64,000 bases of DNA from Prochlorococcus sp. AG-363-K07 (GCA_003280225.1 QCFO01000008.1:8637-72636); one strand, 5' to 3'. Positions 1 through 40,465 are shown, numbered from the stretch's first letter. Notes: generated by a model not told the origin, from the sequence alone. Program-made: numbers and translations.

Positions 1-998
1 TTTGGTCGATTTTGGGTCGCTTACCAATAAGGATCCATGGAAAAGGAGTATTGACAACGCCAAATACCATGCATCTCCTCCAATCTGAGGCATTCGGACG
101 AGTTAAAACTATGAATGTGGATGTTGATATGTGCGTTAAGCAAGGAGACACCCTCGCCACGATTCAACCTGTAAGATTGCAACTAGATGAGAAAAAAACA
201 AAAGAGGAATTAACTAAGCTAATTCAAGATGATCAAAGTGAACATAGATACGCAGATCAGCGTCTTGATTTCCAACGCCGTAAGTTGAATCGTCTAACAA
301 AATTAGCTGACCTAGGTGCCATAAGTCTTCAAGAGCTCGAGCAACTCCAACAGGAAACACAGACACTTGAATCGCAAATAGTAACCGAAAATAATCGCCG
401 TGATCAAAGGATTCAACAACAACAACTGACGTTAGGTCGAATCAGAAAGGAAATTAGTCAAACGGCTATTGTGAAAGCTACCCAAGATGGTTGCATTGTT
501 GGTAGACATGTACAAATTGGGCAATTAGTTCAGCCAGCTACGACTTTGTTTGAACTAAATGCCAGTAACAAAAATGAAGAGTTAAAGAGTTTGGGATTCT
601 TTGTGGCTCAAGATGGAAAACGTTTACGCCTAGGTCAAGCAGTTCGAGTAACTCCTACAACTACTAAACAGCAACGTCATGGTGGTATTCAGGGCGTAAT
701 AACAAAAATCAGCCCATTACCTGTGAGCCAAGCAGCTCTAAAATTAAAATTAGGTGATAATGCCACCGTAACAAGTGTCAGTCAACAAGCAGGAGCCGCA
801 GGTGGGGGATTAATTGAGATAACAACATCACTAAAGAAAGATTCAAAGACAATCAGTGGATATGACTGGGGAGGAGGTAAGGGCCCGAATCTTGTATTGA
901 GTTCAGGTACTACAACTATTATCAGTGTGATAGTTGAAGAGAGAGCTCCAATTAGTTATGTCATTCCCTTACTGAGGGATATGAGCGGCATTTATTAA
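1..998 (+). CDS. HlyD/CvaA-family membrane-fusion (secretion adaptor) protein, 5' end outside the window
   Basis: The frame is open to the window edge with no in-frame stop before nt 12. It has a long coiled-coil stretch (QRLDFQRRKLNRLTKLADLGAISLQELEQLQQETQTLESQI) followed by a beta-rich C-terminus, typical of HlyD-type adaptors. It ends 21 nt before the C39 ABC exporter on the same strand. Confidence 0.8.
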   Translation, partial: WSILGRLPIRIHGKGVLTTPNTMHLLQSEAFGRVKTMNVDVDMCVKQGDTLATIQPVRLQLDEKKTKEELTKLIQDDQSEHRYADQRLDFQRRKLNRLTKLADLGAISLQELEQLQQETQTLESQIVTENNRRDQRIQQQQLTLGRIRKEISQTAIVKATQDGCIVGRHVQIGQLVQPATTLFELNASNKNEELKSLGFFVAQDGKRLRLGQAVRVTPTTTKQQRHGGIQGVITKISPLPVSQAALKLKLGDNATVTSVSQQAGAAGGGLIEITTSLKKDSKTISGYDWGGGKGPNLVLSSGTTTIISVIVEERAPISYVIPLLRDMSGIY

Positions 999-1019
999 TC
1001 AACATTATTCACTAAAACC

Positions 1020-3242
1020 ATGAAACTTTGGAAGGAGATTCAACAAATTTGGATTGCTAGAACTGCCAGGGTAAAAGGGAGTTGGATACGTACACCGACA
1101 GTTCTCCAAATGGAGAACACTGAATGTGGGGCAGCATCACTGAGCATAATTCTGCAGCACTATGGGAAATATGTTCCACTAACTCAATTACGTGAGTTGT
1201 GTGGAGTATCTCGAGATGGAAGTGATGCTGCCAATCTTCTTTTGGCTGGGAAAAAGCTTGGATTAAAAGGTAATGGTTACAAGAAAAGTCTTGAAGCACT
1301 TAGATCAATGAAGTTGCCAGTAATTCTTTTCTGGGAATTTAATCATTTTCTGATTCTTGAAGGATTTGTTGGCGATAAAATCAAGCTCAATGATCCTGCT
1401 GTTGGTCCCCGTTCGGTATCTGAAGAGGATTTTCAGACGAGTTACACCGGAATCACAATTAGCCTTGAACCAGATCATCAATTCCAGACTGGTGGTATCC
1501 GTCCATCAGTTTGGCCGATCGTAAGAAGAAGAATGTTAACAGAACGATTTGGATCACTTTTCGTATTAGTAACAGGACTTTTATTAATTCTCCCACAGTT
1601 GGTAATGCCTATATATGCACAAATTTACTTAGATGAAGTGATTGGTAACCAGCTTGATCAATGGATAAAGCCAATGCTTTGGGCAATGGCAATAACAATT
1701 GTTTTCCAAGCGATTGTTCAGCAACTTCAACTCATTGGCACAAGGTCTCTTGAAAAACGCTTGACTAGACGTTTTGCCGCTCAATTTGAACGTCATGTAT
1801 TATCTCTTCCAGAAAGATTTTTCTCACAACGATTTGCTGGTGATATTGCAGTTAGAGTCCAATACAACAATGCGATCTCTGAATTTATTGCAAGTAGATT
1901 AATTCCTTTAATAGCAGGGTCAGTTCTTTTGATTTTTTATCTCATATTGACTCTCCTATATAGTCCAATACTTGGTCTAATAGTATTCGTAACAACAGGA
2001 CTTAATGCCGTTGCTGTAAGTCTTAACCTCAGGTTCTTAAATGATGCAAGCTTACAAATTAGTAAGGACAGTGCTAAAACAGGAGCTATAATTATTAATG
2101 CTGTTAGAGAAATCGAGTCTATAAAATCAGCTGCGCTTGAAAATGATATTTTCAAGCGCTACACAGGTTATCAAACTCGCCTTCTTAATTTTAATCAAAA
2201 CGTAAGTATGCGAAATACTCGCATGGCAATGATACCAAGTATTCTAACAACAATTAATGAGATTTTAATTCTAAGTGTTGGTTTTATCCTTGTACTTAAA
2301 GGGGAGCTGACGCTTGGAATGCTGTTAGCTGCCCAGACTATTGCTTTGAGCCTTAAAGGTCAAATTGAAAATGTTATTAACTTTGTTCGTGTATTGCCAA
2401 GCTTTGCTTCAAATGTTCTTCGTCTTGAAGATGTTTTAGAGCAACCTATAGACCCTGTCCTTGAATCGAATAGGAATTCAAAGTCTTTCCCAACCGAAAT
2501 AGATCGACTTTCAGGTGCAATTGAGATTCGCGATATGAGCTTTGGCTATGTACCCGTGAAAGCTCCATTAATTAAAGAATTAAACGTCTCTATAAAGCCA
2601 GGTCAGCGTATTGCATTTGTTGGCGGAAGTGGATCGGGTAAAAGTACCATCGCAAAGCTTATTGCAGGTCTCTATCAACCTACTAGTGGCGAAATTCTTT
2701 ATAACGGATTCCCTTTGATCAAAATCCCGAGGTCTATAGCAGTAGCTTCTCTGGGAATGGTTCAACAAGAAATAGCTCTTTATGGCTGCAGTGTTAGAGA
2801 AAATCTAACTATGTGGAACTCTTCAATTCCAGATGGAACACTTATAAAAGCATGTCAAGACGCTCAGATTTTACAAACTATTAGACAATTACCTGAAGGC
2901 TTCCAAACAAAACTGGTAGAAGGCGGCCGCAATCTTTCAGGGGGACAAAGACAAAGACTTGAGATTGCGAGGGTATTAGTGCAAAATCCAGCAATACTGA
3001 TTCTTGATGAGGCGACAGCAGCATTAGATGCAGAAACAGAACGATTAGTTGATGAAGCTTTTCGACGACGAGGTTGCACCCAGATCATTGTGGCTCATCG
3101 GCTTAGTACAATCAGAGACGCTGATGAGATTATTGTTTTAAATAAAGGTGAGGTAGTTCAAAGAGGAACTCATCTTGAAATGTCTAGGTTAGAAGGGAGT
3201 CCTTATCATGCATTATTAAGTGAGGTCGCAGAGAAAAGATAA
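1020..3242 (+). CDS. Bacteriocin/microcin-type ABC exporter with N-terminal C39 double-glycine peptidase domain (peptidase/permease/ATPase)
   Basis: The N-terminus carries C39 signatures: QMENTECGAASL (catalytic Cys), FNHFLILEG (His) and LNDP (Asp). A multi-TM exporter core follows. ATPase motifs are Walker A GGSGSGKST, signature LSGGQRQR, Walker B ILILDEATAALD and H-loop VAHRLST. Confidence 0.9.
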   Translation: MKLWKEIQQIWIARTARVKGSWIRTPTVLQMENTECGAASLSIILQHYGKYVPLTQLRELCGVSRDGSDAANLLLAGKKLGLKGNGYKKSLEALRSMKLPVILFWEFNHFLILEGFVGDKIKLNDPAVGPRSVSEEDFQTSYTGITISLEPDHQFQTGGIRPSVWPIVRRRMLTERFGSLFVLVTGLLLILPQLVMPIYAQIYLDEVIGNQLDQWIKPMLWAMAITIVFQAIVQQLQLIGTRSLEKRLTRRFAAQFERHVLSLPERFFSQRFAGDIAVRVQYNNAISEFIASRLIPLIAGSVLLIFYLILTLLYSPILGLIVFVTTGLNAVAVSLNLRFLNDASLQISKDSAKTGAIIINAVREIESIKSAALENDIFKRYTGYQTRLLNFNQNVSMRNTRMAMIPSILTTINEILILSVGFILVLKGELTLGMLLAAQTIALSLKGQIENVINFVRVLPSFASNVLRLEDVLEQPIDPVLESNRNSKSFPTEIDRLSGAIEIRDMSFGYVPVKAPLIKELNVSIKPGQRIAFVGGSGSGKSTIAKLIAGLYQPTSGEILYNGFPLIKIPRSIAVASLGMVQQEIALYGCSVRENLTMWNSSIPDGTLIKACQDAQILQTIRQLPEGFQTKLVEGGRNLSGGQRQRLEIARVLVQNPAILILDEATAALDAETERLVDEAFRRRGCTQIIVAHRLSTIRDADEIIVLNKGEVVQRGTHLEMSRLEGSPYHALLSEVAEKR

Positions 3243-3390
3243 TTAAATCTAGCTACAAATTATTTAAGGGTTTTGTACTTAATACACAGAAAACAGGGTA
3301 TTATTCAATACAAATTAAAGGTATCATAAATAATATTCTGTAAGATATCTTTCGCTAAGCTGATTCATTTTTAATAATGCTTCTAACTAG

Positions 3391-3435
3391 AAAAAAACTA
3401 GATCATTATGGAATAGTTTATCCACAATGATCTAG
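3391..3435 (-). terminator. Candidate intrinsic terminator downstream of the double-glycine cargo gene
   Basis: A perfect 10-bp inverted repeat CTAGATCATT / AATGATCTAG (3398-3407 and 3426-3435) is followed on the minus strand by a T7 run (A7 at 3391-3397 on plus). The loop is large (18 nt), so confidence is modest. Confidence 0.35.
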
Positions 3436-3528
3436 TTGAAATACAAATTCAGTAAGAATCAGAAGAAACTTATGAGGCTAATCATTAATAATTAAAGAAA
3501 CCTTTGGTAGGAAATCAGGAAAGCTTTC

Positions 3529-4125
3529 CTAAGGGGCAGGAGGCGGAGGAGGATCTATGTCGCCATCAGGTCCGGAGTCGCCACCAAAATCACCCGCTGG
3601 TCCTCCTGGTCCTGAGTAGGCGGTATCTGGCCCACCTCCTGGACCACCCCCTGGTACACCTGGGAGATCACCAGGGCCATTCCCTGGGAAATCACCAGGG
3701 CTATCTCCACCAGCCGCACCTGAAGGAGGCATACCTGGGTCACCACCGGGGTAATCACCAGGAGGCATACCTGGGTCACCACCTGAAGGAGGCATACCTG
3801 GGTCACCACCGGGATAATCACCAGGAGGCATACCTGGGTCACCACCTGGAGGAGGGCCTCCGGCATCAAAGCCTGCCATGCCTCCTGGCATTGTTTCTCC
3901 AGGCATGGGAGGGAGTGGCTGTTCCCCTGGGGCATACATTCCTGGAGGCCTGCCTTCTCCCCCAGGCGCAGGTCCTCCAGGACCGGTCCCTCCTGCTACG
4001 CCAGACAGTTCGTCTAGAGATAAAGCATCAGAATCGTCTTCCGACCCTTTTGTTTTTGGCGACTTATCAACCATGGAAATTTTCGATACACCAACCTTCT
4101 TAGGAAAGTTCTTCAGTTGCGTCAT
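3529..4125 (-). CDS. Double-glycine-leader precursor with Pro/Gly/Asp/Met-rich low-complexity core (putative cargo of the adjacent C39 ABC exporter)
   Basis: The N-terminus MTQLKNFPKKVGVSKISMVDKSPKTKGSEDDSDALSLDELSGVAGG ends in a classic GG-leader pattern. An alternative start is Met18 at nt 4074. The predicted cleavage after G46 puts the leader at 3988-4125. The core is roughly 150 aa of PGG/DPGMPPGDYPGG-type repeats ending PPPPPAP. The other open frames across this G+C-rich stretch give implausible His/Leu-rich products. Confidence 0.7.
   Translation of the reverse strand: MTQLKNFPKKVGVSKISMVDKSPKTKGSEDDSDALSLDELSGVAGGTGPGGPAPGGEGRPPGMYAPGEQPLPPMPGETMPGGMAGFDAGGPPPGGDPGMPPGDYPGGDPGMPPSGGDPGMPPGDYPGGDPGMPPSGAAGGDSPGDFPGNGPGDLPGVPGGGPGGGPDTAYSGPGGPAGDFGGDSGPDGDIDPPPPPAP
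3721..3846. repeat. Tandem 63-bp (21-codon) duplication inside the cargo core
   Basis: Units 3721-3783 and 3784-3846 differ at one position (ggggtaatc vs gggataatc). Each contains the sub-repeat ggaggcatacctgggtcaccacc twice. On the minus strand they encode GGDPGMPPGDYPGGDPGMPPS twice. Confidence 0.9.
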
Positions 4126-4296
4126 CCAAAATGTAAAACAACTTAGTCACTGAAATTATTTAGATCAGCCCCAAAAATTTGGCCCCATCGCACCATTCCT
4201 TGAATACCTTGAGTAATACTGCCTATATATGACCATATAGAAGTCCCTTGTTTTGTAAGTCCAGTTAATATCATTTGTGTTTATTGGTTGTAGATT

Positions 4297-4644
4297 TTGC
4301 TTTATCACTTGCAGGAGAAGAGTGCAGATGTGATTTTGGTAGCTCTTATAATGGCTCATTTTGTTGGTGACTTTGTTCTTCAAAGTGACAGGCTTGCTGT
4401 TGAAAAGTGCCCAGGATCTGATATAACAATTCGTTGGTACTGGTGGATGCTTGGACACGCATCATGCCATGGCATATTAGTATTATTTATCACTGGGTCT
4501 AGTGTATTAGGAATTTTAGAACTGTTATTTCATTTCTTTATTGATTATTTGAAATGTCAATCTAGGATAAATTTTGTCTGCGATCAAATATTGCATTTGA
4601 TAAGTAAGTTTCTTTGGGTCTATCTATTTTTTAAATTGCTTTAA
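4297..4644 (+). CDS. DUF3307-like integral membrane protein
   Basis: It has the HFVGDFVLQ motif and several hydrophobic segments, with a second His-containing segment (LLFHFFIDYL). The start is ambiguous: TTG 4297, GTG 4330 or ATG 4351. It is divergent from the cargo gene. Confidence 0.55.
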   Translation: MLYHLQEKSADVILVALIMAHFVGDFVLQSDRLAVEKCPGSDITIRWYWWMLGHASCHGILVLFITGSSVLGILELLFHFFIDYLKCQSRINFVCDQILHLISKFLWVYLFFKLL

Positions 4645-4831
4645 GGTTAATTAGGATTTGATTTGATAAAACTACAAATCGTTATTGGCTATGATGAATA
4701 GGTTGGAATTCTTTACTAGTAGTTTGATTTGCTACGGAGTTGATTTATAGGGGATAAATTGAATAGCAATAGAGCTAATTCCGATTTAAATGCATCTTAT
4801 TCATTTTAGCTGGCCATATCTATCTTTTTAG

Positions 4832-5044
4832 TCAGATTATCCGACTCACAAGTGCTATTGCTATTTTGTGAATTCTTATTCTAAGCGTCATTAACATATT
4901 CCGGGTCAAACCAAAATATCCAATGGCTCCAATGAATAAGACAAAACTCATTGGGTTCGGAACAAAAACTTCAACAATATTTGAGACATCAAATCCTAGG
5001 AAGGAAATCACAACAAATATCCTTCCCCAGTTAGGTATCTGCAA
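4832..5044 (-). CDS. Hypothetical small membrane protein (70 aa)
   Basis: The ORF has two hydrophobic segments (IFVVISFLGF and FVLFIGAIGYFGL). No recognisable family. Confidence 0.3.
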   Translation of the reverse strand: MQIPNWGRIFVVISFLGFDVSNIVEVFVPNPMSFVLFIGAIGYFGLTRNMLMTLRIRIHKIAIALVSRII

Positions 5045-6413
5045 AATTTATTACCGCTTTGGATAAGCGAAGTAATCCCCTATGGGTTCCTCATGGAATT
5101 GTCCTGATGAGATGCATGTTGAGTTTGCCGATTCATTACTTGATTCTCTGACAAGTGCGAATAAGGAGAAGTCTTTGCCTGAATTTTGAAAGTTGTTTTC
5201 TGTTCTGATATCGAATCTATTAGCAGTTGCAATCCTTTTAATATCAAATTGAACTAAAAATGTTTTCTATAAATTTAAGAAGCCATGAAATAATAACTTG
5301 CGTCAAGGTGAATTGATGCTTTGTGATCGCTTATTTTGAGACTAGAACGCTCTTTCCTGTTAATTAGTTGTTTTTATTGGTATAGGTATTAACGATTTCG
5401 TCATTATTGGTCGCTTGTTTTTCTTTTCTTTTGGTGTTCATTCATCCTTCAACTTATCAACTCAGTAATTCTGCAGTGGCATCTAACCGCAGTTCATTTC
5501 CTTGAATTTTACCTAGTTCTTAGCCATTGAGGCTAGCCCTTTGATTCCAATTTAGATGGAATCCATGTCAATGGAAAATTCTTGAGTTACACACAAGAGA
5601 TTGATTCAATTAATGTTCCACGGGAATAAGTAGGCGTTGAGCTTATAGTGGAATCCAGTAGAAAAATAAAACACCAGAATTATTAGCTATTTCTATGGTA
5701 ACTATGCTTTGAAGAGAGAAGTTATTATTTGCGCTATAACAAGAGGTTTATAAAGAGCAGATGCTCTTTATATCGTCTCTAAAATTAATCATAATCTCTA
5801 TGGTTCTAAGCTTTACTAGCAATGAACGGCTACATTCTGTACATCGAATTGCTGGCCTGAGAGGTCTGCGTTGTCAATGACTATTTTGGAGTTATCCATT
5901 GTTAAATTATCACTCTTGCCCAAATGAAGACTGAATAAGTCTCGATTGATTCTTTAAAAGTCATCTAAGACGAATCTGTAGCGGCCTTTCAGTTTTATAT
6001 CTACTAATATAAGAGCAGAAAAAGCGAAAGCATGATCTTCTCAGAATTTTTGTTTCTACTATAGGACTATAGTTTGGAATGATCTTTGGAACTATGTTTT
6101 CAGAAGTTTTATTTTACTTCAATAAATGGAGCTCTTGTAAGGCAACTTTGTTTATGCTGTTCCAACTTCCTCGCCTTTTTCTTATGGTTACTCTGTTCAT
6201 GGCTACCGGAAGAAGTAACGCAGTTTTGCTTAAAGGTTTTTACTGACAAGTACAAATTCAATAATTTCAACTTGCCTTCATAACCCTTGAACTACGCTCT
6301 TAGAATAATTTTACTAAGATATAAAACATATTGATAACCAATTTTAGGAGGAATTCCGGATCCTATTGAGATAATTTAGGTAGTTAACACTCTTATTTGG
6401 TTGGCATTAAAAA

Positions 6414-7783: not shown

Positions 7784-7920
7784 ACGAATTTGCAACTATC
7801 CCGTTCTAACGCTTGAGAAGGGTGAGGCAATAAGCAATTTGGCGGTTTCTAGTGAATAGAATCTACACTTTGTTCATAAACTCAAGGCGTTTTTTAGACA
7901 ACTTAGGCTTTAATAAAGAG

Positions 7921-8085
7921 ATGGAACCATTCCTCACTACTAGCACTAAAGCAGACTTGCTATTTGCCCTTGGTGGAGTGGGAATATTGATTGGATCGTG
8001 GTTTTTGGGGCGTTTTATAACGGCTGTCTGGCGTAATAATCCACTGATCTGGAAAGGCGGCAATAATCAACAGGATTTTGAGTGA
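7921..8085 (+). CDS. Hypothetical single-TM protein (54 aa from ATG 7921; ORF opens at 7852)
   Basis: MEPFLTTSTKADLLFALGGVGILIGSWFLGRFITAVW shows one clear TM helix. Confidence 0.3.
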   Translation: MEPFLTTSTKADLLFALGGVGILIGSWFLGRFITAVWRNNPLIWKGGNNQQDFE

Positions 8086-8742
8086 AACCCTGAAGATAAC
8101 AGTGCATGCTGTGAGTGTTTTGTGGAACTTAGGACACGCATTGTTTACTTTTTTAGCTTGAGGGTTTGATCCGGGTAGTTCTACTGCAAATGTCTTAGCG
8201 GTTATTGACACATTTGTCACAGTTGCCGTTTTACTTTTTTTTTCTAAGAAGGGTGATGGGTAGGAGCTTTTTAGGATTGAGATCAGCATCAAGTAAGCTG
8301 TATCCAAAGTCTACATTTTTTAGATTTTTTAGTGTTTAACAACTATATGAGCTTGAAATAAAAGCGTATCATTAGTCACTAAATCTAAGTTCTAAAGGTT
8401 GCTACAACTACGAATCTACGACAATTACAAGCCAGAAAGAACTGATTCTAGAACTCTTTATTTTATTGATGAAATATATATTTACTTCGCTATGTCTCAA
8501 AAGTATGAACTCTTCGGATTGTTGGTTCGTATTGGAATGACTGGAACTTCTCTTCCATTCCAGTATCAGAGTGGATTTCTCAAAGGTTCTTAAGTTGGAT
8601 GGACGAATGACTCGAGAATGTGTTTCATCTTCTTTGAATTCTCAGGGATAGATTTGTCTTTACGGCACGTTTCCGTTATTGCCCTTAATGTAGGCATTGT
8701 TTTGATGTTGCAAAAGAGCAGATTCCCTTTGCTCTTATTTAT

Positions 8743-9180
8743 ATGAAACGTTTTTTCCTTTTTGTACTAACTGCTGGACTTGCTTTCCCAATAGTTTCCT
8801 GTAGTCAAAAAAAAGATACATCTCAAACTGTTGAGCCTGTGGTTGTTGAGACGCTTATTAGTACCACTAAATCATGGAATGGAGATTCCTTTCAGTATCC
8901 AAAGGGTTCAGCGCAAATGACTCTCCAGAAAATAATTGCGCAGCCTGGATTTAAAACCCCACTTCATTTCCATCCTCAACCTGGCATTGTGTACTTAATT
9001 AGAGGGACTCTTTCTTGTGCGACTAGTGATGGAAAGTCATTAGTAGTGGGGCCAGGGGATAGCTTTGCTTCACCTCAGAAGACAGCTCATTACTGTGAAA
9101 ACACTGGTAAAAAAGAAGCCCTGATTTTTGTTACTTCTGCTGGCGTTGAAGGCAAGAACATAACTGTATCCATTAAATAG
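8743..9180 (+). CDS. Cupin-domain protein with lipoprotein-type signal peptide
   Basis: The signal is MKRFFLFVLTAGLAFPIVSC (lipobox). The cupin core is PLHFHPQPGIVYLIRGTL...GPGDSF...AHYCENTG. Confidence 0.75.
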   Translation: MKRFFLFVLTAGLAFPIVSCSQKKDTSQTVEPVVVETLISTTKSWNGDSFQYPKGSAQMTLQKIIAQPGFKTPLHFHPQPGIVYLIRGTLSCATSDGKSLVVGPGDSFASPQKTAHYCENTGKKEALIFVTSAGVEGKNITVSIK

Positions 9181-9217
9181 ATGAAAAAGAGAAGCGAACT
9201 CAAAATCAGATCATCCT

Positions 9218-9688: not shown

Positions 9689-11920
9689 CCTTCGTTAAGT
9701 AACAGCGCAGCATTTTATGTTCAGGCCTACTTTATAAAACTATTTTGTTCCACGCTTTAGTAGGAAGTCGCAGGTAAAGCTTTCAACAAAAGATACACTG
9801 ATTATCATCATTGCTAGTCCCATTATTTTGAATGAGTCTTCGTGTGATTTAGGGAGATTAAACAAGGCTTTGGATTCTGTCGTCTCAATCTAGATCTATA
9901 GGACCCTATTTTGAACTGGACCACCATATGAGTTCCGAGAATTTCATATCCCCTAACTTGTACTGTTATCCAATGATTGGTTTTCTGCTTTTGAGTTTTC
10001 GTCTTTCGGTAGTTGCAACCAATCACTACTCCATTTAGTAATCGTCATTAATTCAGTCCAGAAAACCCGAAAAAAGATCTCTTTCTTTAAAACAGGGGAT
10101 AGATCTACCCATCTGCTTTTTCCTGTGCCTCCGAACTGTTTTACTTTAAAGTGTCGATAACCTTCTCGCTTGCTAGCAGAAGTCCATGCATGATTAGGTG
10201 GCCATCTTATTTATTTTAAGAAAGGTAGAAGCTTCATCAAAAAATCAGGGAACGAACAAAGAATTAAAAGGATCAGCCTACAAACGATAGCAATAATTGC
10301 AGCATCACTGGGAAAGTCTTTCCATTGTTAGGGCACATTCTCTGACATTTCCCGAAAATAAATTTGCACAGTTGAGACCCCTTGAATTGAGCGTTTGGGT
10401 TGTTTTCATTTAATCAACAGGAATATTTAGAGAGCATTAAGCATTCTCCTTCTTGATGAAGTTAATGTAAAATTTTAATCTAAGTATTCCAATTGAGACT
10501 GAATTCAGTGTCTTTACTGAAATTCGAGTTGCGTATTCTATTATCGACTAAGGTTTCTTTTAAAAGGACATTAGTCGTTTAAGGAATTATTGCTAAATTT
10601 GTAATCATCAACTAAACAACTTTTCTTAATGTTGCCTTGTTGTGTTTGTTTGTTCGGATAGTGAGTTGCTTAAATGACGATATACAAAGACCTCATTGTA
10701 GAATATTTGCAGTTGCTAAATATAAACACTTCTTGATTGAGTAGTCCAGCAATATTCATTACCTTAGCCAAATACGATCAGCAAAGTGGCCAATTGCTTT
10801 TTGTGATGTCTACTATTTGTTGTTTAATAGAATAAATTAACTTCTTTTCATGAGTGACTGGAATAGACAAGCAGAAAGGAAGTGCCCATCATTTCCTTTT
10901 GAAAATGAGGAAGGCTTGTCGACTTTTGATTTAAACCTAATCCATAACCATCGTCAGAGGCATCTTCCTTTCTTGAAGCGAAATGAGAAAATCCCTTGTA
11001 CAAGTAAAGTCAAGTATTTTTAGAGGGTTAGTTAGATTATTGCTACAAGCACATCGCATCCTTATATTATGAGTGAATTGAGATCCAATAATAGTAGTAG
11101 TGGTTTGATCCAATTATTGATGGCATTTTGGATAAGACTTCCTTAACAGGTAAATTGTACTTTTAATCTTTCGACTGTTGATTGCTCGCATGACATTTTT
11201 AAGTACCATTCATGATTACGCAGCTAGAAGAAAGTGAAAACACTGGATGCCTACAGAATTGATAATTGACTGAGGCTTGACTGGTGCGTGGGCTAAGAAC
11301 ATCATTTCATCAGGTCAAAATCTAGTTCAAGTCCTTGCTCTATTAATGAGTGCTAAAAGCAAGTTTCTATTAATTGCACCCCACTCAAATAGCTCATTCT
11401 TCTCTTGCTATAGCTGTGGAGACAACTCTTCTTCTCGGCGTTTGGTTGTAAAGATCGCGATTGGTTGAATTTAAAGAATTAGCAAACGAAGCCTTGACTA
11501 GTTGACATGTACACGCTGTAGCTGCTAGTACAGGTGTACTGCTACTTTTCAACTTGTTCTGATTTCCTTTGTCTATCCAAATTTTATGGGTCTGGCGGGA
11601 TGCTGGTAGCAGCGGAGTCTATTGGAATTCTCAAATGCCTATGTATTCATTTCCGACAGTAGTGCCTCACAAAAGGTATGCAGACGAAGATCAATGGGAA
11701 TACCTCGAAGAAGGTTGCTTCCAAAAACCACGTTTAACTCTTGTTTTGCTGACATGCCAACATTTCTTTTTTTGCACCGAGCAACATTCTCATTCGCTTC
11801 TTAGTTGCCATCTCAAGCAAAGCCTTATTCCGCGTGGTGCACATTTAACTTCATGGTGTCCCTTTTGGACCCAGAAAAGCTCAAAAGTGGCTTTTATATA
11901 TCCTGAGGCGGTGTAAAGCT

Positions 11921-12166
11921 ATGGCTCCTGAAGGCTGGTTAATTGATCCAAAGGCTCAAGTCCTTTTGTTGTTTCATAGAGATCCGATGTCATGTCAACG
12001 TTTTCCAAAGTTTTATATGGACAAATGGACTGCTACCAAAAATGGAACTCCTCATTTGTTTAAGAACCGCAGAAAAGTTGAGTTAGAACCTGCATCAGAG
12101 ACATGGAGTGAACTGATCCAAAATGGTTGGACACAAGTTAATGAACTATTTGGGAATGCCGCATGA
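11921..12166 (+). CDS. Small conserved hypothetical, resembles the picocyanobacterial DUF1651 family (assignment from memory)
   Basis: The sequence is MAPEGWLIDPKAQVLLLFHRD...NRRKVELEPASETWSELIQNGWTQV. Size and Trp-containing motifs fit small Prochlorococcus/Synechococcus-restricted proteins. Confidence 0.45.
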   Translation: MAPEGWLIDPKAQVLLLFHRDPMSCQRFPKFYMDKWTATKNGTPHLFKNRRKVELEPASETWSELIQNGWTQVNELFGNAA

Positions 12167-40295: not shown

Positions 40296-40392
40296 TTCTT
40301 TTTTATTTTTCTTATAAACATTGAAGTTCTAGGTGGAAATTTAATGTTGTAAATAATTACCTTAAATTAATATTGTAATTAATGTAATGGAT

Positions 40393-40465
40393 CGGAGCGG
40401 CGGGATTTGAACCCACGACCCCCACTACCCCAAAGTGGTGCGCTACCAAGCTGCGCCACGCCCCG
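40393..40465 (-). tRNA. tRNA-Pro (anticodon GGG)
   Basis: The minus strand folds by hand into a cloverleaf. The acceptor is CGGGGCG/CGCTCCG and the D arm is GCGC-AGCTTGGTA-GCGC. The anticodon arm is CCACT-TTGGGGT-AGTGG and the T arm is GTGGG-TTCAAAT-CCCGC. CCA is not encoded. Confidence 0.9.

Follow-up and report, generated by a model that had tools for sequence, protein, structure and literature searches.

The cargo gene and the adjoining exporter

A 64,000 nucleotide (nt) stretch of the genome of Prochlorococcus sp. AG-363-K07 (GCA_003280225.1; QCFO01000008.1, coordinates 8637-72636; 38% G+C), referred to here as the window, begins with genes for an exporter of the C39-peptidase ATP-binding cassette (ABC) type. 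Convergent with these genes is a further gene, the subject of this analysis, that is predicted to encode a secreted Pro/Gly-rich polypeptide, here called the cargo. Coordinates are positions in the window, and (+) and (-) denote the strand. Relatives of the cargo were sought among 5.8 billion protein clusters and 1.84 billion representatives, and DNA scans and locus look-ups were carried out in addition. Loci recovered in this way carry L numbers and protein relatives P numbers, the closest relative being L002, from the Prochlorococcus single-cell genome AG-410-A05. The features of the region are:

1-998 (+): HlyD-type periplasmic adaptor, 3' part from residue ~47, the gene running off the start of the window (TIGR03794 NHLM_micro_HlyD, 187 bits against a cut-off of 156)
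1020-3242 (+): ABC1 exporter with C39, transmembrane and ATPase domains (TIGR03796, 959 bits against a cut-off of 853; Pfam C39, ABC_membrane and ABC_tran)
3396-3437 (-): intrinsic-terminator hairpin with a 17-pair stem, then a T-run, ~90 nt past the cargo stop
3529-4074 (-): cargo gene, probable coding sequence of 181 amino acids (aa) plus stop (homolog starts, upstream stop in L002, codon substitutions)
3553-3690 (-): conserved C-terminal block FPGNGPGDLPGVPGGGPGGGPDTAYSGPGGPAGDFGGDSGPDGDID, then a PPPPPAP tail (tblastn identity 83% to L002 and 70% to L084; substitutions mostly synonymous)
3686-3855 (-): tandem repeats, 2.7 copies of a 63 nt (21 aa) unit with four GGDPGMPP motifs (repeat analysis)
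3856-3951 (-): conserved N-terminal block of the predicted mature protein, RPPGMYAPGEQPLPPMPGETMPGGMAGFDAGG, kept in every family member
3988-4074 (-): predicted acidic double-glycine leader of 29 aa, MVDKSPKTKGSEDDSDALSLDELSGVAGG (13-residue match to ProcA2.8, conserved V-4, L-7 and L-12, AlphaFold helix)
3988-4026 (-): predicted C39 recognition element, the last 13 leader residues (10 of 13 identical to ProcA2.8)
4117-4146 (-): conserved upstream element CTAAGTTG...TGACGCAA, 45-70 nt before the start (aligned 5' regions of the window, L002, L001 and L082)
4297-4644 (+): DUF3307 small membrane protein, on the exporter strand (PF11750, E-value 2.3e-12)

The longest open reading frame (ORF) at the cargo locus, 3529-4125 (-), encodes 198 aa; it begins MTQLKNFPKKVGVSKISMVDK and includes LSLDELSGVAGG. 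However, every homolog begins M(V/S)DK, which aligns with the ATG at 4074 (M18 of the longest ORF), and in L002 a stop codon is located upstream of this Met. Because all homologs start in this way and L002 carries the upstream stop, the start is almost certainly the ATG at 4074, predicting a 181 aa precursor with a 29 aa leader, and the ATG at 4125 was discarded. An initial annotation, made from the window sequence alone, had thus set the start of the leader 17 codons too far upstream, though the Gly-Gly cleavage point that it predicted is the same residue (G46 of the longest ORF, G29 of the precursor).

Comparison with L002 in the cargo frame found 17 identical, 10 synonymous and 6 non-synonymous codons in the leader, and 21 identical, 19 synonymous and 4 non-synonymous codons in the C-terminal block. 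An ORF on the opposite strand, 3504-4103 (+), could encode a His/Gln-rich protein of 199 aa, but in its frame the same C-terminal block has ~20 identical, 0-1 synonymous and 22-24 non-synonymous codons. As nearly all substitutions would be non-synonymous there, this ORF was ruled out as a real gene; it is open because the antisense of GGN and CCN codons contains no stops. This pattern of substitution indicates that the cargo ORF is a real gene under purifying selection in the cargo frame only, and supports the frame proposed initially.

The cargo locus has a G+C content of 60%, against 38% for the window, with values of 0.79, 0.69 and 0.32 at the first, second and third codon positions. The third-position value and the synonymous codon choice are like those of the neighbouring genes, and the G+C skew therefore stems from Gly and Pro codons and not from a foreign origin, which was ruled out. 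A phage origin was also rejected, no relative being found among IMG/VR or GenBank phages. Direct reading of the sequences revealed hairpins 3' of the cargo homologs in L083 and L001 also. The upstream element has the consensus CTAAGT(T/G)...TGACG(A/C)AA in the window, L002, L001 and L082, 45-75 nt before the start, and thus occurs in lineages of both low and higher G+C. It is a candidate for a promoter or for a regulatory signal in the 5' untranslated region. The cargo protein was absent from the protein collection for every start and strand tried, and is therefore apparently unannotated in the source record.

The last 13 residues of the leader, ALSLDELSGVAGG, share 10 of 13 positions with those of the prochlorosin precursor ProcA2.8, NLSDDELEGVAGG, including all critical ones. 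For the C39 protease LahT, V-4, L-7 and L-12 together with GG are the recognition determinants, and the sequence NLSDDELEGVAGG is that of a ProcA2.8-derived inhibitor (PMC6363468). The last 13-14 leader residues suffice for cleavage, a synthetic substrate with only the last 13 being cut by LahT150 (PMC6363468). V-4, L-7 and L-12 are present in the window leader and kept in all homologs, and the GG is invariant among them. The junction in the window reads ...SGVAGG|TGPGG, and AlphaFold placed a short helix at leader residues 20-23. The precursor is thus predicted to be cut after G29, giving the new N-terminus TGPGGPAPGG. The features of double-glycine cargos of PCAT/AMS exporters, namely GG at -2/-1, hydrophobic residues at -4, -7 and -12 and adjacency to a C39-ABC protein with intact catalytic residues, were all found. 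Two regular-expression scans of all 64 kb in six frames recovered this as the only ORF with a double-glycine leader; such expressions miss cargos with variants at -8 and -4, as in L086, L090 and L089, which were recovered by eye or by tblastn. The leader did not match the NHLP or Nif11 leader models of NCBIfam and Pfam, and the sole hit was to a 12-residue stretch of a CCRG-2 leader (E-value 0.018), which is weak and below the cut-off.

The frame of the HlyD-type adaptor is open from nt 3 and aligns with residue ~47 onward of the full-length 376 aa ortholog in L002. The C39 domain of ABC1 has LahT147 (PDB 6mpz) as its best solved relative (E-value 1.2e-35, 45.5% identity), and Q30, C36, H109 and D125 of ABC1 align with Gln21, Cys27, His101 and Asp117 of LahT, for which the residue roles have been described (PMC6363468). 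The stop codons of the cargo and ABC1 genes are 286 nt apart, tail-to-tail. This spacing, the intact Cys, His and Asp of the C39 domain and the adaptor running off the start of the window had been recorded in the initial annotation and all stand. It had also described a microcin-type module, and an HlyD adaptor and a C39-peptidase ABC protein are indeed present. However, the generic bacteriocin_ABC model (TIGR01193) gave ABC1 only 327 bits, its cut-off being 524, and judged by the profile scores the exporter is an NHLM/NHLP-type cassette and not a CvaAB-type microcin module. In relatives, this cassette consists of four genes, encoding a cyclic-nucleotide-binding protein (TIGR03896), ABC2, HlyD and ABC1. 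The first two are found upstream in every examined relative that reaches that far, and would precede nt 1 of the window. In L002, the TIGR03896 match scored 288 bits against a cut-off of 161, and the best match of ABC2 was to TIGR03797 at 631 bits, below the cut-off of 709.

After the GG, the core is 152 aa in length with a calculated mass of 13.7 kDa, and Gly (32.9%), Pro (28.9%), Asp (10.5%), Ala (5.9%) and Met (5.3%) together make up 83% of it. It contains no Cys, 8 Ser/Thr, and 19 acidic residues versus 1 basic residue (isoelectric point ~4.05), and the highest Kyte-Doolittle mean over 15 residues is -0.03, hence there is no hydrophobic segment. The AlphaFold model, built from a four-sequence alignment, had a mean predicted local distance difference test score (pLDDT) of 54 and no secondary structure save the helix turn in the leader, and the core is predicted to be intrinsically disordered. 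The ORF, the double-glycine pattern and the Cys-free composition without a hydrophobic segment, all noted initially, were present in the sequence, and the disorder and acidity proposed at that time agree with these values.

The N-terminal block has the family consensus PPxxYAPGxQPLPPMPGxxMPGxGMxGF[DE]xG and the highest pLDDT in the core (~70). The repeat region varies in length and unit by lineage: GGDxGMPP is also found in P0001, P0002, L082 and L085, whereas the units in L002 are of 21 and 33 nt (PGGGYGGPDGG). The Asp-rich C-terminal block is conserved in the low-GC lineage, where the family consists of leader, N-terminal block, repeats and C-terminal block. This last block includes ...DGDID in the window and ...DGDIDG in L002, the latter matching the DxDxDG calcium-binding motif. 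No Pfam match was found for the cargo at an E-value of 1 or below, excluding RTX (PF00353 HemolysinCabind), collagen and any other repeat family of that database.

Distribution of the cargo and its linkage to the exporter

Searches with the full-length cargo were swamped by low-complexity candidates, and were repeated with the N-terminal 73 aa. Only five relatives were identified, P0001-P0003 and P0010 in marine metagenomes and P0014 in AG-410-A05 (L002). A further three, L082, L084 and L085, came from the DNA scans and locus look-ups.

The genetic context was examined in loci carrying ABC1 orthologs of falling identity to that of the window. In all five loci with an ABC1 at least 79% identical and sequence available downstream (the window, L002, L084, L001 and L085), the cargo gene was found downstream of ABC1 in convergent orientation, the co-occurrence that the initial annotation had put forward for survey. 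By ABC1 identity, the arrangements are:

88% (L002, L084): Pro/Gly-rich cargo tail-to-tail with ABC1
81% (L001): Pro/Gly-rich cargo tail-to-tail with ABC1
79% (L085): DUF7005, then the C-terminus of the cargo, one gene further, at the contig end
77% (L088): DUF7005, and no cargo within 5 kb downstream
76% (L089, likewise a single-cell genome of Prochlorococcus): ABC1 followed at 25 nt by DUF3307 and, beyond it, a 614 aa protein in convergent orientation
74% (L086, L087): cargo with a basic 30 aa core
67% (L090, L091; 64% G+C): short acidic leader and poly-Pro core, upstream of the cassette

The more distant ABC1 orthologs are thus accompanied by other double-glycine cargos at or near the cargo position. 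A second sample of 80 other NHLM loci, drawn from other phyla, contained mostly precursors with leaders of ~78 aa and cores of 8-30 aa, and a Pro/Gly-rich cargo in none.

An ortholog of the DUF3307 protein (52% identical) is encoded in L089 (coordinates 3844-4191 (+)), 25 nt past ABC1 with no Pro/Gly-rich cargo between them, while in the window ABC1 and DUF3307 are parted by the cargo gene and its flanks, ~1 kb in all. From this arrangement, DUF3307 is probably a component of the exporter cassette, of which it may be the fifth gene, and not a partner of the cargo; the cargo looks like an insertion between two cassette genes, unless a deletion has occurred in L089.

The convergent protein in L089 (GCA_902588205.1; coordinates 4236-6080 (-)) is 614 aa in length, with the leader LSLDQLGKAVGG, the leader end ...TPLSLDQLGKAVGG|CGIGDG and ALTTAQ repeats (PF20080, E-value 6e-14). 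GMAGFDSG occurs ~30 residues past its cut site, and GMAGFDAG is found at a similar distance in the window cargo. However, only the leader and the GMAGFD motif are common to the two and the match was not significant, and this protein was not accepted as a homolog. Its presence suggests that the exporter clade may secrete large repeat proteins, not only peptides. In L090 (coordinates 2820-3017 (+)) and identically in L091, an ORF upstream of the gene for the cyclic-nucleotide-binding protein combines a short, acidic leader with a core rich in Pro, MVDSPDDDHDDEELSSEVLSAVSGG|KGGPPPPPPPPPRPPASWMMGPPGGNLTTVAPLTTVAPFR. Homology could not be accepted here either, with a borderline 18 bits to the family profile and no significant BLASTP match, and the ORF is possibly a distant family member.

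The double-glycine cargo of L086 (coordinates 11771-12110 (+)), 1.5 kb past ABC1, has the junction ...DEATLAAVSGG|NSFAMQSARRLKKRLDAGGGRLVWGKRNRK and a basic core, and is split over two overlapping ORFs; a 339 aa GNAT acetyltransferase is encoded directly 3' of ABC1 in this locus. The DUF7005 proteins (~319 aa) encoded tail-to-tail with ABC1 in L085 (coordinates 8016-8975 (-)) and L088 (coordinates 8225-9181 (-)) carry a HELTH (HExxH) motif, and could be metallopeptidases. An integrase-like remnant and a CHASE2-guanylate cyclase gene are located nearby in L088, and the L090 cassette is flanked by CHASE2 and FecR genes.

A short form of the cargo was found in L083 (coordinates 88-318 (+)). It is 76 aa in length, stops just past the N-terminal block and has its own terminator, and its 47 aa core ends in MDGMGGMGF (MxxMxxM). 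In L001, the cargo of higher-GC form lies beside an ABC1 gene of only 42% G+C, and the near-identical cargo gene of L082 has aroA and a methyltransferase gene, at 53% G+C, as its neighbours. These values hint that cassette and cargo are in a low-GC island, or have moved between picocyanobacterial lineages. In L002, the cargo gene (coordinates 7814-8358 (-)) is frameshifted within the repeats, the C-terminal block continuing in another frame, and the DUF3307 gene (coordinates 8400-8961 (+)) has an in-frame stop and a frameshift, with the four large cassette genes intact. Either both small genes are truly decaying or the single-cell assembly contains errors here.

Elsewhere in the window, ~1.75 kb between DUF3307 and pstS (4645-6413) contains no ORF of more than 70 aa, no transfer RNA (tRNA) gene and no Rfam match, and has a G+C content of 30-35%. 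This gap seems long given the compact genomes of picocyanobacteria. An Rfam scan of positions 1-12 kb gave zero matches. The sole tRNA gene of the window, tRNA-Pro(GGG) at 40392-40465 (-), is probably unconnected with the Pro-rich cargo, the Pro codons of which are mainly CCT and CCA.

Possible roles of the cargo

From the leader, the exporter and their linkage, the cargo is very probably cut and secreted. The explanation that we favour, with a probability of roughly 0.6, is that it is a leader-cleaved, unmodified, disordered polypeptide with a non-lytic role outside the cell, as a coat (surface or matrix) or a polymer that binds cations. Translation from the ATG at 4074 would yield the 181 aa precursor, the leader helix of which would seat L-12, L-7 and V-4 in the hydrophobic groove of the ABC1 C39 domain. 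Cys36 would cut after the Gly-Gly, and the unfolded core would be exported via ABC1 and HlyD. By analogy with relatives, ABC2 and the cyclic-nucleotide-binding regulator, encoded upstream of the window, would be partners in export, as would an outer-membrane channel encoded elsewhere. Modification would not be expected, as the core lacks Cys and is poor in Ser/Thr, and tailoring enzymes were not seen in the vicinity. The weakest step is the extracellular role, as the specific function is guessed from the composition of an acidic, disordered Pro/Gly polymer. A surface, matrix or cation-binding polymer is more likely than a pore-forming microcin because the core, at 29% Pro, is strongly acidic and devoid of hydrophobic segments, and because DUF3307 tracks the exporter and not the cargo.

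Several observations weigh against the favoured explanation. Family members are very scarce in public data, and this speaks against a core role in physiology; the disruption in L002 may indicate that the cargo gene is dispensable there. Linkage to the exporter is not universal: the short form in L083, on a contig of 816 bp, adjoins an unrelated convergent gene without a Pfam match and not an exporter, and in L082 only aroA is visible upstream of the cargo and DUF3307 is not beside it. A LanM, another enzyme or further cargos may be encoded outside the window. Within it, no LanM, cyclodehydratase, radical-SAM or other enzyme of ribosomally synthesised and post-translationally modified peptides (RiPPs) is among the ten largest ORFs, all of them housekeeping genes, in line with what was stated initially; no systematic screen covered the smaller ORFs. 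Finally, the cargo is exchanged at or near one locus in close relatives and its repeats are hypervariable, a pattern typical of antagonistic systems too.

This last pattern leads to the reading of the cargo as an unmodified bacteriocin, resembling class II microcins or of another kind, that would be exported by the cassette and antagonise competing picocyanobacteria, and in which the N-terminal block would be active or receptor-binding and the repeats a variable spacer. A leader with a dedicated peptidase-ABC protein and HlyD is the classic export architecture of bacteriocins, changing cargos and repeats are typical of conflict genes, and the 47 aa core of the short form is microcin-sized. Known pore-forming class II microcins have a hydrophobic or membrane-active region, whereas the acidic, disordered, 29% Pro core has no hydrophobic or amphipathic segment (maximum -0.03). 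Its 13.7 kDa also exceeds the limit of <10 kDa given for microcins in PMC13188072. The DUF3307 membrane protein adjoins the cargo in a position frequent for immunity genes, but it does not behave as one, being found directly behind ABC1 in L089 without the cargo and missing beside the L082 cargo. An antagonistic role is unlikely but is the main alternative, and it would also account for the cargo turnover and repeat variation.

A broader proposal, which we regard as distinctly unlikely as a whole, is that the NHLM cassette is a general leader-dependent route of protein secretion with exchangeable cargos, and not a pump for RiPPs or bacteriocins alone. The Pro/Gly/Asp/Met polymer of the window would then be a new cargo class, a disordered extracellular polypeptide that buffers cations such as Cu(I) or Ca2+ or forms a hydrated coat around the cell. 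For cation binding, the GGDxGMPP repeats (GGDMGMPPP in some lineages) and the Asp-rich C-terminal block can be cited. Marine cyanobacteria release copper-complexing ligands that are chemically unidentified, and if the polymer does bind copper, it would be a gene-encoded candidate for these. Of the picophytoplankton groups in one study, Prochlorococcus was the most sensitive to Cu (PMC13374865).

It is improbable that the cargo is a RiPP precursor with a core hydroxylated, glycosylated, acylated or cross-linked by enzymes from outside the window, as prochlorosins are modified by a LanM in trans. NHLM cassettes usually serve RiPP precursors, as the long leaders and short cores predominating in the 80-locus sample illustrate, and the last 13 leader residues resemble ProcA. 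A GNAT acetyltransferase (L086, L087, L090) or the HExxH protein DUF7005 (L085, L088) is also encoded beside related cassettes, but neither is present in the window, and no tailoring enzyme is among its ten largest ORFs. The 29 aa leader moreover has no NHLP or Nif11 match and is missing the N-terminal part that tailoring enzymes normally bind, and the lack of Cys precludes lanthionine or thiazole chemistry. We know of no RiPP core that resembles a 152 aa repeat polymer.

A signalling role, in which the N-terminal block is a secreted pheromone-like peptide, as ComC is for ComAB, with a receptor at the cell surface, and the Pro/Gly repeats are an accessory tail, appears very improbable. The block is the sole part common to all members and forms most of the short-form core, the cassette includes a cyclic-nucleotide-binding regulator (TIGR03896), and CHASE2 sensor-cyclase genes are located beside the related cassettes in L088 and L090. 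However, the screening of window ORFs turned up housekeeping genes and genes of unknown function, with no receptor kinase or CHASE2 gene near the cargo, the long conserved C-terminal block is left unexplained, and the family is too rare for a test of receptor co-variation. That the gene is a decaying remnant, or encodes a cytoplasmic low-complexity protein with a fortuitous likeness to a leader, is scarcely credible: the frameshift in L002, the apparent lack of annotation and the rarity of the family point that way, but synonymous bias is strong in both conserved blocks, the window ORF is intact with its own terminator, the leader fits the experimentally defined recognition sequence at all critical positions and the linkage with the exporter recurs.

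For the secreted coat or cation-binding polymer, the export logic is fully known and the type of cargo is new. No Pfam or NCBIfam family, and no paper in the literature searched, was found to describe such a cargo, consistent with the statement in the initial annotation that it has no described function. Secretion and the lack of modification are what we infer from sequence. Double-glycine leaders and peptidase-ABC exporters are usually taken as signs of bacteriocins or RiPPs, and here a prochlorosin recognition element is predicted on a Cys-free, disordered polymer. Given the similar leader on the 614 aa repeat protein of a sister lineage, the most abundant phototrophs of the sea may use such pumps to secrete ordinary proteins, polymer-like ones included. 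Similar cargos may be overlooked systematically, as the open antisense frames of Gly/Pro-rich genes invite mis-calls. The rarity of the family leaves its ecological weight uncertain. The defined N-terminus, TGPGGPAPGG, and mass make export checkable by mass spectrometry, and the chemistry of the repeats suggests metal-binding tests.

Comparison with known secretion systems

RTX proteins also have Gly/Asp-rich repeats and are exported unfolded by an ABC protein, an HlyD-type adaptor and an outer-membrane channel. RTX secretion signals are C-terminal and uncleaved, whereas the signal predicted in the window is N-terminal and cleavable. In addition, GGDPGMPPx, with its three Pro, does not fit GGxGxDxUx, and there is no HemolysinCabind match. 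Class II microcins (colicin V, with CvaAB/TolC) resemble the cargo in the short double-glycine leader, the unmodified Gly-rich product, the C39-ABC and HlyD proteins and the Gram-negative envelope. The cargo differs in being larger than 10 kDa, strongly acidic and Pro-rich with no hydrophobic segment, and in its NHLM-family exporter. No immunity gene linked to the cargo was found, as DUF3307 tracks the exporter, and the short form in L083 resembles microcins in size only.

LahT, PCAT1 and ComA (PDB 6mpz, 4ry2 and 8hf4) have in common with ABC1 the C39 fold, the catalytic residues, leader recognition via V-4, L-7, L-12 and GG, and a tolerance of diverse cores. Their known cargos are peptides or small folded proteins, whereas the cargo in the window is of low complexity. 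Neither the scan of 80 other NHLM loci nor the literature searches brought up a comparable low-complexity cargo. The second ABC protein and the cyclic-nucleotide-binding protein also set the NHLM cassette apart from these exporters.

The prochlorosin systems share the exporter family (TIGR03796 and TIGR03794, with ABC2 and the cyclic-nucleotide-binding protein in relatives) and the organism group, and the last 13 leader residues are nearly alike (ALSLDELSGVAGG against NLSDDELEGVAGG in ProcA2.8). Prochlorosin precursors have short, Cys/Ser/Thr-rich cores. The cargo, in contrast, lacks a Nif11/NHLP leader domain and Cys, has a 152 aa Pro/Gly/Asp/Met repeat polymer as its core and is encoded in cis, convergent with the exporter, and no LanM is encoded among the ten largest ORFs of the window. 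An NHLM/NHLP export cassette of three genes is known from marine picocyanobacteria (Haft 2010, cited in PMC3140520). Clusters with this cassette, termed group V, are listed within Prochlorococcus for MIT9313 and MIT9303 only (Wang et al. 2011; PMC3140520), and the G+C content of the window is ~38%.

In function, the nearest precedent is EbfG1-4 of Synechococcus elongatus PCC 7942, unmodified double-glycine proteins whose secretion needs the C39 Cys of PteB and from which the matrix of its biofilms is built (PMC4997328, PMC9981879). They are unrelated to the cargo in sequence, and EbfG1-3 form amyloid via hydrophobic hot-spots, which a polymer with 29% Pro cannot. Prochlorococcus is moreover planktonic. 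Nevertheless, both are cyanobacterial double-glycine proteins without modification enzymes that use, or here, judging from the genes, would use, a peptidase-ABC exporter, and EbfG acts in the extracellular matrix or at the surface and not as an antibiotic. The logic proposed for the cargo is thus like that of the EbfG/PteB matrix proteins, and unlike that of a microcin that inserts into membranes.

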